The notes beneath the pieces are model-generated. The model saw only the letters and a program-made list of their open reading frames with translations, was not told the DNA's origin and ran no database searches. DNA of 49,190 bases from Thermoplasmata archaeon (GTDB taxonomy: Archaea; Thermoplasmatota; Thermoplasmata; Halarchaeoplasmatales; Halarchaeoplasmataceae): positions 1 through 49,190 of the forward strand of contig JAFDUB010000001.1 of the NCBI GenBank assembly GCA_019594025.1, written 5' to 3'. Both the position numbers and the translations under genes were made by a program. Positions 25,926 to 37,925 of this stretch are shown here, piece after piece (the stretch's first letter is position 1; every line of letters starts with the position of its first letter).

Positions 25926-28900
25926 TCACTCCTTTTTCTTGGTGACTAAAGAGAAAATCGTTATACATAGCAGTATAACGATAAACCAGCCTAAACTGGT
26001 GAACTCAGGTATGTTGGGTGAGATCATGAACGGCTCTAAACGTATCGAAGTGTCGATACCTGATAGGATATTGGTATGCTCCATCTGGAAATCCCATGAA
26101 TCTTCAGTTCGGTTATAGGTCCATGAGGCTAGAGTGTCGTCCATCATAGCTACAAGGAAAATGTCTCCTCTTGTATCCTGTATAAGCTGTATCCTCTCCG
26201 GATAGTCCACGTTCTCGTAAGTTATACTTCCAATCTCTCCCCAGTTTCCTTCGTGGTACCTGCGGTATACTGGATATCCATATTCTTCAGTACCCCAGAC
26301 GAGTATAACTGTGTCCTGAACCGAGGAATCGTACAACAGGTCGAAACATCTGTTCCCCAACGTGAAAGTGTCCTGATCATGAGTTGTTTCGTCTACAAAG
26401 TTGTTGTCTTCGATCTTTAATGTTTTCAAAGGCCATGAGTTTTCAGTCTCATAACTCACCGCTATGGTCATTCCATCTCCGCTGGGATCCGGTGCAACCG
26501 ATATCCATCTGCCTTCTCCTCCAATATCGTAGCTGAATTCCGTTCCCCAACCCTCCTCAGGTCTCCACAATCTCATGTACAATTGACTGCTGCCGTCCCT
26601 GCCCCACACAAACAGAGCGTTACCCGCGTTATCGAAGGTAATGTCCTCACTCGGTAGTATCTCCCCATTCATCGCTGGTACCGGCCCATCGTCCAAAGCC
26701 TGTAGGTCGATCATCTCGTTCCCGTCCCATATCAAGCCGACTCGATGGTTATTTTCGAAATGGAATGTGTTATAAGCAGTTAAAAAGATGGCGATATCGT
26801 CGCTGACTGGTGAAGAGGATGTTTCGATCCAGTCTATTTGACACATGGCCCGGGCGAGATCGTACATGATTTCTTCCGACCACGACGCATTTTCCCTGTC
26901 CCACGTTCTATAGTTGAAGAAAGAACGAGGCTCGTCTTCATCCGCGGTAGCGTTGTAGTAGATTATATGCCCCTGTCCGGTGAGACCCTCGTAGGCCACA
27001 TCGAAAACTCGATGTGTACTGTCAACTCCTATGTTCATGGCGATGGGTTCTGCACCGGTCCAATCTGTTCCATTCCAAACGTTGGCAAATATATGAACCC
27101 CTCCATCGGCGTCCTCCACTTGAACCGCAATTATCTTTTCTTCCAAAGTAGGATTCTGCCGGTTTACCAACCATTGTATTTCAGGTCCACCAATTTGCCC
27201 CTCTTCGGTTCCACCCCAGTTCTCCCCATCCCACCATGAGTACTCGAAGTCTCCATCTCCGATTCCATAGGATATCAAAACCTCCGACATCTCCTCCATG
27301 AGCTCTTCGTAATCCCGGATCTCAGCATTCCGAACTGACCTATGAGGTGAAAGAACAACCCGATCCCCTCGTCCTTCCCAGTTGATTGTTTTGATGAGAC
27401 CGGTTTCAAAAGATGTACCACCAGCATAAATTTCCAGTTGATTGTACCATTTAGCACACTCCGGTTCGCTCTCTTCCTCTATCCATTCACCGTTTTCATT
27501 ATAGTAGGAGGTAACATAAAGTATTTCGCCGTACTGCCCCCTTACAACCACTTTTCTGTCCGCGTCGCTGCCGTTATATAACATTCCAGAACCATCTTCG
27601 TCTATGTAAAATATGACTTCATCTTCTCCAGATATTCTTTCAACCACGGGGTCGGGTTCTACAGGGTCGGGCTCGTAATCTGGAGTGTACACATCAACCC
27701 CTTCCGGTATGGCGGTTCCCTGGAGAACCCTGCCTCTTGTTTTCACGTAAAAGAAGATATCCTCCTCGATATATCCATATTCTATAATATCAACGTTAGC
27801 TGGTAGGTTGTATTCCACACTGTGCTCCTCTTTTAAATCCTCCCATTCAACAAAAACACCGTCTATTTGCGCTTCATATGAAACTTCTTCAAAATAATAG
27901 GAACGTGGTTCACCGGATATCGTTGTCACAGCTTCAGTTTCCACATCCTTTACCTGTACGGTAATAATCTCATCGGGGGTCGCGGTACCGTTAACTGTAA
28001 TTCTTATGCTGGTGTTTTTCTCCACTAACAAGGGATAATCTACATCAACCTCTACGGTCTCGAAATTACCGTTAAATGAGATGTCTTGAACCGTCACTTC
28101 ATCACCTCTAGCGGTCAAGTTAAGCACCAGTATGTCTTCATCAGGCGAGATCACATGGTCGTTTACAGGACTGTGTTGATAAATTGACAATGAAGGTTTT
28201 CCGGGGACGATGACATGGTCGCTGTGAGCCTCTACTCCCTTTGAATCCCTTGAGACAATATATATTTCTACGTCCTCTTCGTCCTGAACGGTAACGTGAG
28301 GAATCGAGAACTCCAATTCGTTTTCCACTTTAGCGACGTCTATATTACCTATAATCTCCCAATCATTCCAGTTTCTTTGGTCGGTTCGATTTTCGTACTG
28401 ATATACAGCTCCAAAAATTTCATTCTCCCATCCCTGCACCTTTACCAGATAATTAGCCTTTATGGTGGGTGTGTAGTAATGGTTTTGGTCTTCGTCCGTG
28501 GTGATATTAAGGAAGAAGTAGAATGAATCCATGTTCCCTTCTTCATCTCCAACCAGTATTTCCTCCTCCGTTCGGATATAGAAGAACAAACGTTCGTCAC
28601 AAGTAGTCACAGCGCTTTCTTCGATGCTGACGCTGGACGATATCTCTTCAAGTTGGAAACTATAGGTGTCTATTTCTCTCCAATCTTCAAAATCACCGTC
28701 AATGACCATCCTTTCATCATCTTCGAAGGGAGAATAGAACAAGAAAAAGGCAAAGGATGATATTATTATCAATGTAATAACGAAAAGTGCGACGGGAGCT
28801 TTTTTCCTTTCTGTTTTCCGTCTCTTCGTTTTAACGGGTCCTGCGGATTTTCTTCCATTAACTAAACCACCTCCAATCTCCACATCCCTTGCACGCAAAC

Positions 28901-29639
28901 CGTTTACTTTACCCTCCCTAGGTTCGTCCTTTTCTTTTTTCTCGGCAATGGGCATGTACACTTTTTTAGGCTTTTTTTCTTGTCTCTTCTTCTCTTCTTC
29001 TAATTTGGATAAAAGCCCGTTCGCTTTTTCACAAGCGTTTTTGTAATTGTGTAATATAAGCTCCTCTTCTATCTTGTCGATATCTTTCGAGTATTTATCG
29101 AGTGATAGATGGTCTTTTTGCTCTTTCCAGATGTCTTTTATTCCTTCAAAATCCTTATTGGTCTTTTTTAAATATCCTATGTCTCTAAGTATTCCGTAAA
29201 GTCTCTCCCACTCTTTATCGGTTACACCATGGCTTATCTGCCGATGTATATCCTGTAACTCTTTTTCAAAGTAAGCACGGTGATCGTTGACCACCACTCC
29301 CGCTTCAATACCTTTTTGTATTGAATTTTCAACCTTTTCAATCACTTTATTTATATCCTTTTTTTCCTTCTCCTCTTCCTCACAATGGGTGCATGATCCT
29401 TCCGATTCGATAGGTTCACCACAGTTTTCACAAACCTCCATATCTGCTAGTATCTCTTTAACGTCTTCCAATATTCGCCGAGCTGTTTTTGGCCCGATGC
29501 CCTTTACTTTCTTTAGCTCTCCCTCATCAAGCTCCGAAAGGTCCTTTAAGGACTGAACTGCAAGTTCATCCACGATTGTATTAGCGGTGGTTTCTCCTAT
29601 CCCTTTTATCTGTTGAAGATGGTGGATTATTTTTCCCAT
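25926..29639 (-). CDS. Large bitopic membrane protein: cytoplasmic (HhH)2 + zinc ribbon + coiled coil, TM, repeat-rich exodomain, PEF-CTERM-like tail
   Basis: 1237 aa. HhH motifs are IKGIGETTANTIV and VKGIGPKTARRIL, and the zinc ribbon is CENCGEPIESEGSCTHC. A Lys/Glu-rich helical region ends in KTKRRKTERKK, followed by a TM helix (APVALFVITLIIISSFAFFLFY, aa about 281-302). The acidic exodomain has IDG-F-(D/V)-W modules and about 7 W-x-G-x-x-W repeats. The C-terminus is NIPEFTSLGWFIVILLCITIFSLVTKKKE. Confidence 0.85.
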   Translation of the reverse strand: MGKIIHHLQQIKGIGETTANTIVDELAVQSLKDLSELDEGELKKVKGIGPKTARRILEDVKEILADMEVCENCGEPIESEGSCTHCEEEEKEKKDINKVIEKVENSIQKGIEAGVVVNDHRAYFEKELQDIHRQISHGVTDKEWERLYGILRDIGYLKKTNKDFEGIKDIWKEQKDHLSLDKYSKDIDKIEEELILHNYKNACEKANGLLSKLEEEKKRQEKKPKKVYMPIAEKKEKDEPREGKVNGLRARDVEIGGGLVNGRKSAGPVKTKRRKTERKKAPVALFVITLIIISSFAFFLFYSPFEDDERMVIDGDFEDWREIDTYSFQLEEISSSVSIEESAVTTCDERLFFYIRTEEEILVGDEEGNMDSFYFFLNITTDEDQNHYYTPTIKANYLVKVQGWENEIFGAVYQYENRTDQRNWNDWEIIGNIDVAKVENELEFSIPHVTVQDEEDVEIYIVSRDSKGVEAHSDHVIVPGKPSLSIYQHSPVNDHVISPDEDILVLNLTARGDEVTVQDISFNGNFETVEVDVDYPLLVEKNTSIRITVNGTATPDEIITVQVKDVETEAVTTISGEPRSYYFEEVSYEAQIDGVFVEWEDLKEEHSVEYNLPANVDIIEYGYIEEDIFFYVKTRGRVLQGTAIPEGVDVYTPDYEPDPVEPDPVVERISGEDEVIFYIDEDGSGMLYNGSDADRKVVVRGQYGEILYVTSYYNENGEWIEEESEPECAKWYNQLEIYAGGTSFETGLIKTINWEGRGDRVVLSPHRSVRNAEIRDYEELMEEMSEVLISYGIGDGDFEYSWWDGENWGGTEEGQIGGPEIQWLVNRQNPTLEEKIIAVQVEDADGGVHIFANVWNGTDWTGAEPIAMNIGVDSTHRVFDVAYEGLTGQGHIIYYNATADEDEPRSFFNYRTWDRENASWSEEIMYDLARAMCQIDWIETSSSPVSDDIAIFLTAYNTFHFENNHRVGLIWDGNEMIDLQALDDGPVPAMNGEILPSEDITFDNAGNALFVWGRDGSSQLYMRLWRPEEGWGTEFSYDIGGEGRWISVAPDPSGDGMTIAVSYETENSWPLKTLKIEDNNFVDETTHDQDTFTLGNRCFDLLYDSSVQDTVILVWGTEEYGYPVYRRYHEGNWGEIGSITYENVDYPERIQLIQDTRGDIFLVAMMDDTLASWTYNRTEDSWDFQMEHTNILSGIDTSIRLEPFMISPNIPEFTSLGWFIVILLCITIFSLVTKKKE

Positions 29640-31568: not shown

Positions 31569-31576
31569 TTTAAATA
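31569..31576 (+). promoter_or_regulatory. TATA box (TTTAAATA) for aIF5A
   Basis: Matches the archaeal TATA consensus. It ends 28 nt before the aIF5A ATG, implying a leaderless or very short-leader transcript. Confidence 0.45.
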
Positions 31577-31603: not shown

Positions 31604-31993
31604 ATGGCATGGGAACAAAACGAAGTCAGAAATCTCAAGGTCAATCATTATATAATGATCGATGACGAACCTTGCAAGATTAAGAGTATAGATATATCTA
31701 AACCTGGGAAACATGGCGAAGCCAAGGCTAGAATACAGGGTATAGGTATATTCGATAGAAAAAAGCACAGTATGATAAGCCCGGTTACTCATAAAATACG
31801 AGTACCGATAATAGATAAGCGAAAGGGCCAAGTTATCAGTATCCAGGGAAATGAAGTTAAAATAATGGACCTTGAGACCTACGAAACCTTCGGTTTAGCA
31901 GTTGATGACGACGAGATAATGGATAAAGTTGAGCAGGGCCAAGAAGTCGATTATTTGGAAACCGTGGGTAAAAAGAAGATTACAAGGGTGTGA
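31604..31993 (+). CDS. eif5a: Translation initiation factor 5A (aIF5A)
   Basis: 129 aa with the hypusine/deoxyhypusine loop SKPGKHGEAKARI and a C-terminal OB-like domain. It ends ...GKKKITRV with TGA at 31991..31993. Confidence 0.93.
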   Translation: MAWEQNEVRNLKVNHYIMIDDEPCKIKSIDISKPGKHGEAKARIQGIGIFDRKKHSMISPVTHKIRVPIIDKRKGQVISIQGNEVKIMDLETYETFGLAVDDDEIMDKVEQGQEVDYLETVGKKKITRV

Positions 31994-31999
31994 GAGAAA

Positions 32000-32821
32000 A
32001 TAACCGTATTTGCTAGTGCGCGGAGCGACTACGAAGGGGCGGAGTATGTATTTTTAGGAGTCCCCTTCGACAAAACATCCTCTTTTCGTACGGGTACCGC
32101 ACAAGCACCGTCTTCCATACGTAGAGCGTCCTACTGTTTCGAGCCTTATATGATGGAGTATGATGTTGATATAAGTACCATACCACTTCACGACTATGGG
32201 AATTTGGTGGAGTACTCGTTGGAAGATATGGGTTCAACGGTTAGAGGAACAATTATGGATATACTGGAAGACGGTAAGTTTCCTTTGATAGTCGGAGGTG
32301 AACATTCTATAACTCCGCATGTTGTGTCCGCCTATGAAGACGTCAGCGTTTTGATCCTGGACGCTCATCTTGATTACAGAGATACTTATGAAGGTATGAA
32401 GTACAGTCACGCCACAGTTTCAAGAAGAGTTTCAGAACAGATAGCAAATGACTTACTCGTTTGTGGTGTGAGATCTATTTCTTCCGATGAGATTAAAGAA
32501 GGTAATTTACCTAATTATATATCCGCTAAAGAAATAAACTCTATGGGGGAACCTGTTGATAGGGTAGGTGAAAACTTCAAATCCTCTAGAATTTATCTAT
32601 CTATAGATATGGACGTGGTTGACCCCGCCTACGCTCCAGGAGTTGGAAATCCTGAACCATTTGGTCTAAAACCTATCGTTTTGAAGGAAATCATACATAA
32701 ACTAGCCGATAGAATGGTTGGATTCGATATTATGGAGGTATCTCCCACCAACGATGCAGGGGGTATAACTTCGAACCTAGCCGCTAGGTTGATATACGAG
32801 TTTCTCGGCTCTCGAAGGTAG
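32000..32821 (+). CDS. speB: Agmatinase (ureohydrolase family); start codon unresolved
   Basis: The ORF track starts at ATG 32150, but the frame is open from 31994. There it encodes the conserved ureohydrolase N-terminus FASARSDYEGAEYVFLGVPFDKTSSFRTGTAQAPSSIR. Downstream motifs are GGEHSIT, LDAHLDYRD, SIDMDVVDPAYAPG and EVSP. ATA at 32000 is the only near-cognate start. Confidence 0.85.
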   Translation: MTVFASARSDYEGAEYVFLGVPFDKTSSFRTGTAQAPSSIRRASYCFEPYMMEYDVDISTIPLHDYGNLVEYSLEDMGSTVRGTIMDILEDGKFPLIVGGEHSITPHVVSAYEDVSVLILDAHLDYRDTYEGMKYSHATVSRRVSEQIANDLLVCGVRSISSDEIKEGNLPNYISAKEINSMGEPVDRVGENFKSSRIYLSIDMDVVDPAYAPGVGNPEPFGLKPIVLKEIIHKLADRMVGFDIMEVSPTNDAGGITSNLAARLIYEFLGSRR

Positions 32822-32823
32822 AT

Positions 32824-33903
32824 TTAGTAAACGTTTTGGATTTTCTTCACCTTTTTATCCGGAACCACCAAGTGCTTTGATTTTATACCAGTAGCTACCA
32901 GCATCACTCGCAAGGTATTTTCCAGTTCAGGCTTGATGTTGCATCCCCATATTATATGCGCATCGGGACTGACAACCCTTTCTATCTCCTCGGCCACCAT
33001 TTCAGCTTCTCGGATCGTCATGCTGCTGCCGCCGGTGACGTTGATGAGAGCTCCTTTGGCTCCACTGATATCTACATCCAATAAGGGGGAGTTAATCGCT
33101 TCTTCAATTGCTTCGAGAGCTCTATTATCTCCCGATGCTGAAGATTCACCCATACCTACCATGGCCATCCCAGCGCTCTGCATTACCGTCTTCAGATCGT
33201 TGTAGTCCAAGTTCACAAGTCCGGGTTTTGTGATCATCTCTGTCAGACCCTTAATTGAACGCATCAGTATTTCATCGGCGATCTTGAAAGCTTTGTTCAA
33301 GGATAATCTTGGGAACAGTTCAACCAGTTTATCGTTCGGTATTATTATCACCGTATCGGTGAGATTCTTCATCTGTTGGATTCCCCATACCGCGTTCTTT
33401 TCTCTTGATTTTCCTTCGGAAGAAAATGGTTTCGTCATAACCGCTATGGTTAAAGCTCCTTTTTCCTTCGCCATTCTTGCTATCGGTGCGATTGAACCGG
33501 TTCCGGTACCTCCTCCTAAACCGCAGGTAAGAAAAACAATATCTGCACCTTCTAGTATCGGTTCGAAGTTATCGATAGCTTCTTCAGCTGCTTTTTCACC
33601 TATCTCTGGTTTAGAACCTGCACCAAGACCACGGGTTAGGTTACGACCCATCAGTACCTTTCGATCGGCGTGTACACTCAAAAGGTGCTGGGCATCTGTG
33701 TTGGCCGCTACAAGGGCGGCACCTTTTACACCTTCTTCGGCAATTCGATTTAACGTGTTTCCTCCGGCTCCACCGAGACCAACTATCACTATCTTGGTCT
33801 TGAGACCCTTTAGAACCTCAACTAGTTCTTCATCCATATCTTGGTCCGAAAAAACCTCTTTTTTATCATCATCTTTTAGGGCGTTCTTTATGAGGGAGTC
33901 CAT
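32824..33903 (-). CDS. ftsZ: Cell division protein FtsZ (FtsZ1-like)
   Basis: 359 aa with IVGLGGAGGNTLNRI, NTDAQHL and the tubulin signature GLGGGTGTGS. Confidence 0.93.
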   Translation of the reverse strand: MDSLIKNALKDDDKKEVFSDQDMDEELVEVLKGLKTKIVIVGLGGAGGNTLNRIAEEGVKGAALVAANTDAQHLLSVHADRKVLMGRNLTRGLGAGSKPEIGEKAAEEAIDNFEPILEGADIVFLTCGLGGGTGTGSIAPIARMAKEKGALTIAVMTKPFSSEGKSREKNAVWGIQQMKNLTDTVIIIPNDKLVELFPRLSLNKAFKIADEILMRSIKGLTEMITKPGLVNLDYNDLKTVMQSAGMAMVGMGESSASGDNRALEAIEEAINSPLLDVDISGAKGALINVTGGSSMTIREAEMVAEEIERVVSPDAHIIWGCNIKPELENTLRVMLVATGIKSKHLVVPDKKVKKIQNVY

Positions 33904-36875: not shown

Positions 36876-37925
36876 TCAAGACACATAGCGAATTCTACTA
36901 TCTTTTTTATTGTTCATCGCTTTATGCCCGTTATCTAAACCTGTCAATACAGACATCAGTTTGATCTTGTGTTGATACTGGGGATCTACTCGTGCACCAA
37001 AGATAACATTTACACTAGGATCTAAATTCGAGGTAAGCTTACTCACCACGTCGTGCATCTGCTTGACGGAGAGGTCAGATCCACCGGTCAAATGAATGAG
37101 AGCCTTTTTAGCTCCAGTATAGTCTACGGGTAGAAATGGATTTTTACTTGCTTCATCCACTACATTTAGGTAGTTATCGATACTCGACACCCCACGCATG
37201 AGTGTTGACACCCCTCCAGTACCGAGGACTGATCGTAGATCGTTGAAATCTAGGTTGATTAAGGAAGGAAGCGTGACGGTTTCAGTTACACTTTTGATAA
37301 GGTCGGATATAAGAGAGTCCATAACCCCAAATCCCTGATCTATCGGTAAATCTGGAACCACTTTTAACAGCGTGTCGTTTTCCAACACAATGGTTGAATT
37401 GGAGTAAGCCTCTATTTTTCTTAAACCGGCAAAAGCCATTTTTCTTTTTGTTCTTCCCTCGCAAGAAAAAGGCAGGGTAACTATACTTATTACCATGCAT
37501 TTGCACCTTTTGGCGATCTCACAAACCACAGGGGCTGCTCCGGTTCCGGTTCCACCTCCCAATCCCGCGGTCACAAAGACCAGGTCAGTTTTTTTAAACA
37601 ATCTTTTAAAACCTGAGGCTGCACTTTCTGCACACTTTTCCCCTAAACGTGGATCTCCGCCCGCCCCCAGTCCACGATTGAATTCCTTGCCTATCAGCAT
37701 TCTCGTGTCCGCCTGCACGTTTAAAAGATGTTCTTTATCCGTATTAACCGCAATAGTTTCGGCACCGTATATACCTAAATTACTCAATCGGTTCGTGCTG
37801 TTGCATCCTGCCCCACCTACTCCTAATACTAAAACCGATAGACCTGGAGTGTCCTCCATTTCCGAGGAGTAGTATTTTGCCACCATTTTTTTTACCTTCT
37901 CATGTTTCAGGATAATACCTGCCAA
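36876..37925 (-). CDS. ftsZ: FtsZ paralog (FtsZ2-like)
   Basis: 349 aa with VLGVGGAGCNSTNRL, NTDKEHL and GLGGGTGTGAAPV. It is preceded by an RHH gene, as in the cdrS-ftsZ2 arrangement. Confidence 0.9.
   Translation of the reverse strand: MAGIILKHEKVKKMVAKYYSSEMEDTPGLSVLVLGVGGAGCNSTNRLSNLGIYGAETIAVNTDKEHLLNVQADTRMLIGKEFNRGLGAGGDPRLGEKCAESAASGFKRLFKKTDLVFVTAGLGGGTGTGAAPVVCEIAKRCKCMVISIVTLPFSCEGRTKRKMAFAGLRKIEAYSNSTIVLENDTLLKVVPDLPIDQGFGVMDSLISDLIKSVTETVTLPSLINLDFNDLRSVLGTGGVSTLMRGVSSIDNYLNVVDEASKNPFLPVDYTGAKKALIHLTGGSDLSVKQMHDVVSKLTSNLDPSVNVIFGARVDPQYQHKIKLMSVLTGLDNGHKAMNNKKDSRIRYVS

Follow-up and report, generated by a model that had tools for sequence, protein, structure and literature searches.

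A 49,190-nucleotide (nt) stretch of a contig from a Thermoplasmata archaeon (GenBank assembly GCA_019594025.1, contig JAFDUB010000001.1; this whole stretch is referred to as the window) carries a gene for the translation factor aIF5A and, directly behind it in the same reading frame, a gene for agmatinase that has no canonical start codon at its conserved N-terminus. Comparison of this junction with its counterparts in related archaea suggests that agmatinase translation probably starts at an AUA codon (ATA 32000) just past the aIF5A stop, through termination–reinitiation, through initiation led by a Shine–Dalgarno (SD) element, or both. Five species-level lineages of soda-lake Thermoplasmata, the window and four further ones from independent assemblies, share this arrangement, and in all five the ATA stands, by alignment, where closely related archaea have the initiator ATG.

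The reading frame downstream of the aIF5A stop

The aIF5A gene ends in AAG AAG ATT ACA AGG GTG TGA (ITRV-TGA), and past this stop the same frame runs on as GAG AAA ATA ACC GTA TTT GCT. The first in-frame ATG, GTG or TTG is ATG 32150, after a gap of 52 codons. Given the codon usage of the window, 52 codons free of all three triplets have a probability of about 0.023, and the conserved protein content of these codons is a stronger point than this chance figure. ATA 32000 is the only near-cognate codon ahead of the conserved agmatinase core. Two GTG triplets around the stop were rejected as agmatinase starts: GTG 31988 is directly followed by the TGA, and GTG 31990 is out of frame and meets a TAG after eight codons. 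Agmatinase is the sole gene among the 45 in the window to lack a canonical start at its conserved N-terminus, and a plausible one could be assigned to each of the remaining 44. Two other genes in the window also have long stop-free stretches upstream (32 and 78 codons), and each has an ATG with a good SD motif. The initial annotation, which was made from the letters of this stretch, had described the shared frame, the 52 codons devoid of ATG, GTG and TTG, and ATA 32000 as the lone near-cognate candidate, and all the positions it gave proved correct.

Profile and structure comparisons placed the true start of agmatinase well upstream of ATG 32150. TIGR01230, the agmatinase equivalog, matched the 275-residue translation from 31994 with 219.1 bits (cut-off 174.3) over profile positions 2–274 of 275, corresponding to residues 5–272 of that translation; this match from residue 5 places the true N-terminus no more than a few codons from the aIF5A stop. 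PF00491 matched with 225.8 bits over profile positions 2–279 of 280, and for the open reading frame (ORF) from ATG 32150 the Pfam Arginase match begins only at profile position 44. The closest solved structure, the agmatine ureohydrolase of Thermoplasma volcanium (3PZL; E = 7e-60), aligned from residue 4 (residues are numbered from the ATA from here on). An AlphaFold model of agmatinase, built with 42 homologues (mean predicted local distance difference test score 90.3), has β-strand 1 at residues 16–20 and a helix at residues 33–46, both upstream of Met51; according to this model, a product begun at ATG 32150 would lack both elements. Across the five lineages, the ratio of nonsynonymous to synonymous substitution rates (dN/dS) in the first 50 agmatinase codons was 0.07–0.16 where estimable, synonymous sites being saturated in 6 of 10 pairs, a pattern that marks these codons as translated and under purifying selection. 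The conserved ureohydrolase N-terminus that the initial annotation had recognized in the 52 codons was thus borne out by TIGR01230 and the 3PZL alignment, and the modelled β-strand 1 agrees with its expectation that a protein begun at the first ATG would be without this strand.

Both genes of the pair appear intact. The agmatinase contains the metal-binding His/Asp motifs GGEHS, DAHLD and S-x-D-x-D; in a 42-sequence alignment, H102, D121, D125 and D203 show no variation and H123 and D205 reach at least 90% conservation, and a 15-sequence alignment has all six of these metal-binding residues invariant. We regard it as the gene of a functional enzyme, predicted to hydrolyse agmatine to putrescine and urea or to act on another guanidino substrate; the substrate of the Haloferax volcanii orthologue is disputed (PMC5178350). 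The aIF5A translation matched NF003076 (179.2 bits, cut-off 138) over profile positions 1–128 of 129, TIGR00037 with 169 bits, and the Pfam families IF5A-like_N and eIF-5a, and it retains the hypusine-site lysine (GKHG within SKPGKHGEAKA). Because aIF5A is complete by NF003076, the TGA is its natural end and not a nonsense mutation in a former fusion.

Conservation of the ATA junction and its ATG-bearing relatives

The nearest relatives were found by a search of 5.8 billion proteins, and their contigs were then inspected at the junction. The ATA junction was recovered from the metagenome-assembled genomes PWKY01, SLLU01, PWEC01 and PUPH01, from JGI (3300000563 and Ga0207421) and ENA (ERZ27301263) assemblies, and from Logan contigs of SRR490129, SRR7083934, SRR16248214 and SRR32456884 (Table 1). 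The stop is TGA in four lineages and TAA in one. From stop to ATA the spacer measures 6 nt in the window (GAGAAA) and in L001 (GAAAAG), and 3 nt in L004/L008 (GAA) and in L006 (AAG), so the differences in length among ATA lineages are always multiples of 3. Alignment of the orthologous junctions, a check proposed with the initial annotation, therefore found the start-less in-frame arrangement kept in all five lineages; of the in-frame TGA described there, the frame is general and the identity of the stop is not, one related lineage having TAA. No ATG, GTG or TTG precedes the conserved core anywhere in the clade, except for a GTG GTG within β-strand 1 of L004/L008. This pair was rejected as a start: it is missing from the window, L001 and L006, and its use would delete a conserved F-A motif. 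A metagenome scan for additional members of the clade recovered just two lineages that were already known (L092 and L093), and the clade stays at five.

To place the junction among its relatives, we drew on scans of GTDB representative genomes and JGI metagenomes for aIF5A directly upstream of agmatinase. These gave 83 distinct junctions from Thermoplasmata, Methanomassiliicoccales and Methanocellales, 78 of which have a canonical agmatinase start (75 ATG, 2 TTG and 1 GTG); the only five without one are those of the ATA clade. Among the 78 canonical junctions there are 15 ATGA overlaps and 9 with a 2-nt spacer (GTG TGA GG ATG), and most of the non-ATGA rest start no more than 25 nt from the stop. 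Adjacency of the two genes is near-universal in the sampled members of these three groups (L009–L091). In a neighbour-joining tree of agmatinases, the five ATA lineages formed one clade nested among ATG-bearing lineages, with a sister group that includes L009–L011, L015 and L016 and has the overlap GTA-TGA / ATG-A and a protein beginning MNKFA or MTKFA. The ATA clade starts I-T-V/T-F-A, and ITVFA of the window aligned to MNKFA, MTKFA and MMDFA; among the closest relatives that have an ATG, the initiator Met of P0003, P0005 and P0006 lines up with the ATA. On this alignment the ATA occupies the ancestral ATG position, and the simplest history would have the ATG lost once, at a junction that was tightly coupled, and the ATA kept from then on as the clade diversified.

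Conservation at the nucleotide level extended to the last codons of aIF5A. The ATA is invariant in the five lineages, and the codons flanking it vary synonymously (GAG/GAA, AAA/AAG and ACC/ACA/ACG). An SD-like element covers the end of aIF5A (Table 1), and its core, GGGTG, sits 6–9 nt upstream of the ATA across the clade. The last three aIF5A codons read ACA-(A/C)GG-GTG in all five lineages, with all three third positions invariant; in the 14 codons before them, the third position varies in 12 and is constant in 2. By a post-hoc test, the chance that all three terminal codons fall among the five third-position-invariant ones is about 0.015. Paired with an assumed anti-SD sequence, GAUCACCUCCU, the element before the ATA gave a duplex energy of -8.4 kcal/mol, which is stronger than the median at gene starts (-6.0 kcal/mol) and ranks in the top 6% when set against random positions of the window. 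The corresponding value was -6.4 kcal/mol in the TAA lineage and -1.3 to -4.0 kcal/mol in the sister ATGA clade, which has AGA GTA at this site; ATG 32150 has no SD element upstream (-2.2 kcal/mol). The SD elements visibly used by genes of the window are of the GGAGGTGA type, such as caaggaggtgttatagATG and aaggtgatttttttATG. Scanning the window against Rfam and for tRNAs gave no match.

Proposed initiation at AUA and its alternatives

We propose that aIF5A and agmatinase form a two-gene operon in which agmatinase would be translated from an AUA 6 nt past the aIF5A stop, or 3 nt past it in some relatives. A ribosome, or its small subunit, would complete aIF5A at the UGA and be kept nearby by the SD-like GGGUG that lies within the final codons of aIF5A. 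It would then reinitiate on the AUA with initiator Met-tRNA, giving a protein that begins M-T-V-F-A; this AUA may in addition be reached by de novo, SD-led initiation. With so weak a start codon, agmatinase would be produced at a low level compared with aIF5A, and its output would depend on aIF5A translation. We infer AUA use, decoding by the initiator tRNA, coupling to aIF5A termination and the throttling of expression from comparative sequence data on these uncultured organisms. In H. volcanii and Escherichia coli, termination–reinitiation functions at overlaps and very short distances, and its efficiency drops steeply with distance, 13 nt having cost 60% in one H. volcanii pair (PMC10666635). 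Distances of -8 to +10 nt are regarded as predictive of coupling (PMC10666635, PMC6728339), and reinitiation often uses an SD element within the upstream gene (PMC6728339). The present genes are co-directional and 3–6 nt apart, within the limit of about 10 nt for such pairs (threshold from PMC10666635), and the near-cognate ATA stands at the AUG position of orthologues in five lineages; the restart codon is not one of the canonical ATG, GTG or TTG, as only the ATA is present. In ribosome profiling of H. volcanii, near-cognate codons accounted for about 30% of the putative sites of alternative initiation (PMC7261190). ATA initiation coupled to aIF5A termination, one of three explanations offered in the initial annotation, thereby became the best supported through the ATA at the ATG position, its invariance, the SD-like GGGTG and the short distance.

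Several observations weigh against initiation at the AUA. Measurements of AUA as a start codon have shown it to be poor, with about 1–2% of AUG initiation in E. coli (bioRxiv 10.1101/063800), and for Archaea a non-exhaustive search of the searchable literature turned up no natural AUA start with experimental documentation. ATA also outnumbers every other Ile codon, with a share of about 50% (39 per 1000 codons), and its invariance by itself is weak evidence, with a chance of about 0.06–0.12. The anti-SD sequence GAUCACCUCCU is an assumption, not read from the 16S rRNA of the organism. Finally, agmatinase is in frame with aIF5A at all five junctions, across two 3-nt indels, and initiation at the ATA needs no such frame.

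This frame conservation invites the reading that a fraction of ribosomes pass the aIF5A stop and that the resulting fusion of about 405 residues, aIF5A-X-EK-agmatinase, is the functional or even the only source of agmatinase activity, which we consider quite unlikely. The frame with aIF5A is kept in 5/5 lineages despite two indel events, both multiples of 3, compared with a background in-frame rate of just 17 of 78 among the other junctions, and a functional tie exists in the proposal that agmatinase acts on modified aIF5A in H. volcanii (PMC5178350). Roughly two independent events underlie this frame evidence, however, and their chance is about 0.1, so that the in-frame downstream ORF carries low statistical weight. 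Neither a conserved leaky stop nor a stimulatory structure was seen. Four lineages have TGA-G and the L006/L014/L093 lineage has TAA-A, so that both the stop and its context differ within the clade, and RNA folding across the junction gave nothing conserved or unusually stable (alifold consensus -5.5 kcal/mol, single-sequence z = 0.38). The aIF5A C-terminus, moreover, falls exactly at the normal end of the family, and a concatenated aIF5A and agmatinase query against 1.84 billion representative proteins found no full-length fusion among the top 150 matches. Readthrough of the TGA, the second of the earlier explanations, thus gained from the in-frame arrangement in five of five lineages and was weakened by the TAA-A lineage, the lack of a conserved structure at the junction and the lack of a natural full-length fusion among those matches. 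The only two-domain match among the 150 was P0147, a 231-residue protein from another lineage (48% identity) in which aIF5A residues 1 to about 95 run in frame into agmatinase, picked up at about residue 85; it stems from a mis-assembly or from a deletion that spans the junction and is not a full-length fusion.

Agmatinase could also be reached by an elongating ribosome. An unrecycled post-termination ribosome would slide a few nucleotides and resume elongation at or near the AUA with the elongator tRNAIle2, leaving an N-terminal Ile; the CAU anticodon of this tRNA carries agmatidine, and output would be tied to termination and recycling as well as to agmatine-dependent tRNA modification. The very short distance from stop to AUA (3–6 nt) and the missing canonical start are in keeping with such a restart. 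Archaeal AUA decoding needs agmatidine made from agmatine (PMC3919564, PMC5178350), and agmatine is the agmatinase substrate, which would give the scheme a plausible substrate-sensing logic. We nevertheless judge it very unlikely: it is wholly speculative for archaea, with no precedent found in the literature searched; ATA is so common a codon that the modified tRNA should be abundant and a single AUA a poor sensor; and the conserved SD-like element equally fits ordinary positioning at a start site. A broader proposal is that the stop, the 3–6 nt and the in-frame AUA together form a device by which agmatinase is made only from ribosomes that finish, or fail to finish, aIF5A, without canonical initiation; low-level readthrough into a fusion, or an unrecycled ribosome resuming at the AUA with agmatidine-modified tRNAIle2, are conceivable routes. 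Such a device seems unlikely to us. If real, it would link agmatinase output to aIF5A-dependent termination efficiency, to agmatine supply or to both, and would join a translation factor, the modification it receives from polyamines and agmatine-dependent AUA decoding in one feedback loop.

Gene decay and technical error fared worse. Gene callers annotated a truncated product (223, 228, 230 and 224 residues) for four of the five lineages, as would be expected if the gene were a pseudogene or yielded only the 223-residue product from ATG 32150. A truncated or decaying gene is, however, highly improbable, given the strong purifying selection on the first 50 codons at saturated synonymous sites, the β-strand 1 and helix 1 of the fold that these codons encode, the lack of an SD element before ATG 32150 and the fully intact catalytic residues. 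The third explanation in the initial annotation, an assembly or sequencing error such as ATG read as ATA, was refuted by the junction in independent NCBI, JGI, ENA and Logan assemblies: separate assemblies from several sequencing projects carry the identical ATA in five lineages, and base-calling error is therefore excluded for the clade, as far as assemblies show. A lineage-specific code with TGA as a sense codon was considered as well. TGA terminates 27 of the 45 window genes, no long ORF is interrupted, and TAA replaces TGA at the junction of one lineage; reassignment of TGA or its use for selenocysteine is therefore excluded, and the code is standard. Beyond the anomaly itself, nothing spoke for error or recoding. 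We assign error and recoding together a practically negligible probability. A-to-I editing of AUA to AUI was also considered, and no archaeal mRNA-editing activity is known that would support it.

Surrounding features, implications and known systems

Coordinates of the junction features and the junction sequences of the ATA lineages are collected in Table 1. The TATA-box-like TTTAAATA upstream of aIF5A is a possible promoter of the operon, and its position suggests that, if it is used, the aIF5A–agmatinase transcript would be leaderless or nearly so.

Table 1. Features around the aIF5A–agmatinase junction in window coordinates, and junction sequences of ATA-bearing lineages (aa, amino acids)
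Feature	Position	Strand	Details
TATA-box-like TTTAAATA	31569..31576	+	About 31 nt upstream of the aIF5A ATG; read from sequence; usual archaeal TATA-to-start spacing
aIF5A gene	31604..31993	+	129 aa, complete; NF003076, TIGR00037 and Pfam matches
SD-like element ACAAGGGTGT	31982..31991	+	Core GGGTG at 31986..31990, within the final three codons of aIF5A, 9 nt before the ATA
aIF5A stop TGA	31991..31993	+	In frame with agmatinase; homologous stop TAA in the L006/L007/L014/L093 lineage
Spacer GAGAAA	31994..31999	+	6 nt, purine-rich, stop to ATA; length and sequence vary among relatives
ATA, proposed AUA start codon of agmatinase	32000..32002	+	Invariant in five lineages; aligns with the initiator Met of relatives
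Agmatinase (ureohydrolase)	32000..32821	+	273 aa counted from the ATA; stop TAG 32819..32821
First canonical ATG	32150..32152	+	Internal Met51; start chosen by gene callers, 223-aa product (P0001)
Junction, window			GTG TGA GAG AAA ATA ACC GTA TTT
Junction, L001 (PWKY01; also JGI and Logan contigs)			GTG TGA GAA AAG ATA ACC GTA TTT
Junction, L004/L005/L013 (Ca. Halarchaeoplasma halalkaliphilum SLLU01; ENA; Logan) and L008			GTG TGA GAA ATA ACA ACC TTC
Junction, L006/L007/L014/L093 (PWEC01, PUPH01, Logan, JGI)			GTG TAA AAG ATA ACG GTA TTT

The Lys-rich C-terminus of aIF5A has T AAA AAG in the window, where the homologous region (31970..31978) reads GGT AAA AAG. In L004 (2908..2914) and L008 (2794..2800), shortly before the aIF5A stop, the codons R-K-K include A AAA AAG, a classical -1 slippery heptamer; a shift there would not enter the agmatinase frame. 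Two FtsZ paralogues, at 32824..33903 (-) and 36876..37925 (-), flank a ribosomal P1-P0-L1 cluster. The first of them converges on agmatinase with 2 nt between the stop codons, and in relatives the two genes overlap by 10–47 nt. Downstream of agmatinase in L010 (3826..4911; GCA_003559355.1, PWLO01000072.1), FtsZ is present as two ORFs of 205 and 108 residues; the near-identical L011 has a single 361-residue FtsZ gene, and the split in L010 is probably a frameshift or an assembly error. Elsewhere in the window, at 25926..29639 (-), a 1237-residue ORF has an N-terminal helix-hairpin-helix domain (residues 7–61) as its sole Pfam match.

Should the AUA truly serve as the start codon, the agmatinase gene of this clade would be a naturally conserved case of AUA initiation in Archaea, kept through divergence that saturated synonymous sites. 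It would offer a natural substrate for studying the strictness of archaeal start-codon selection (aIF1, aIF1A and aIF2), reinitiation versus de novo initiation, and which codons can serve as restart in termination–reinitiation. A weak, coupled start would keep agmatinase well below aIF5A. There are competing needs for agmatine, the polyamine/deoxyhypusine branch on one side and the essential agmatidine of tRNAIle2 on the other (PMC5178350, PMC3919564), and low agmatinase would fit these needs. There is also a consequence for annotation: all public calls of agmatinase in the clade are N-terminally short (223–268 residues, the 268-residue call P0002 starting at an internal GTG) because gene callers do not consider ATA, and the correct product would have about 273–284 residues.

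The junction resembles several known systems. Both proteins are ordinary members of their families, and their clustering, short-distance translational coupling and conserved non-canonical starts in bacteria are already known. Like termination–reinitiation pairs with ATGA or TGATG overlaps (Huber et al. 2019, PMC6728339; 2023, PMC10666635), the two genes are co-directional at a distance within -8 to +10 nt and have an SD-like motif inside the 3′ end of the upstream gene, and the sister clade has a classical ATGA at this place. Unlike in those pairs, the restart codon is ATA rather than ATG, GTG or TTG, aIF5A and agmatinase are not known as subunits of one complex, and we infer the coupling. Programmed readthrough likewise features conserved in-frame coding sequence past a stop; here, by contrast, the stop identity and context vary (TGA-G, TAA-A), no stimulatory RNA structure was found, and the downstream ORF encodes an enzyme that is complete by itself and has separately translated orthologues. 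Clustering of aIF5A and agmatinase in Euryarchaeota, with an agmatinase-like enzyme proposed to act in deoxyhypusine formation, was described by Prunetti et al. 2016 (PMC5178350), in agreement with the initial annotation, which had named both the clustering and a proposed action of the enzyme in aIF5A modification. The gene pair and its order are the same here, with adjacency in 83 distinct junctions; that work covers function and clustering and does not describe a non-canonical start or an in-frame stop junction.

A further parallel lies in bacteria. E. coli infC and pcnB have conserved AUU starts that serve expression control (cited in bioRxiv 10.1101/063800). The junction shares with them a conserved near-cognate AUN codon where a housekeeping gene truly begins and its orthologues have AUG, and a weak start that plausibly sets a low or regulated output. 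It differs from them in its setting in Archaea, with the fidelity factors aIF1, aIF1A and aIF2 rather than IF3, in the use of AUA rather than AUU, and in a start directly after an in-frame upstream stop; the present gene is not known to be part of an autoregulatory loop. A non-exhaustive search of the searchable literature found no archaeal precedent. What is new is the combination, in a clade whose relatives use ATGA overlaps, of a conserved AUA at the ancestral AUG position of an archaeal housekeeping gene with a location only 3–6 nt past an in-frame stop.

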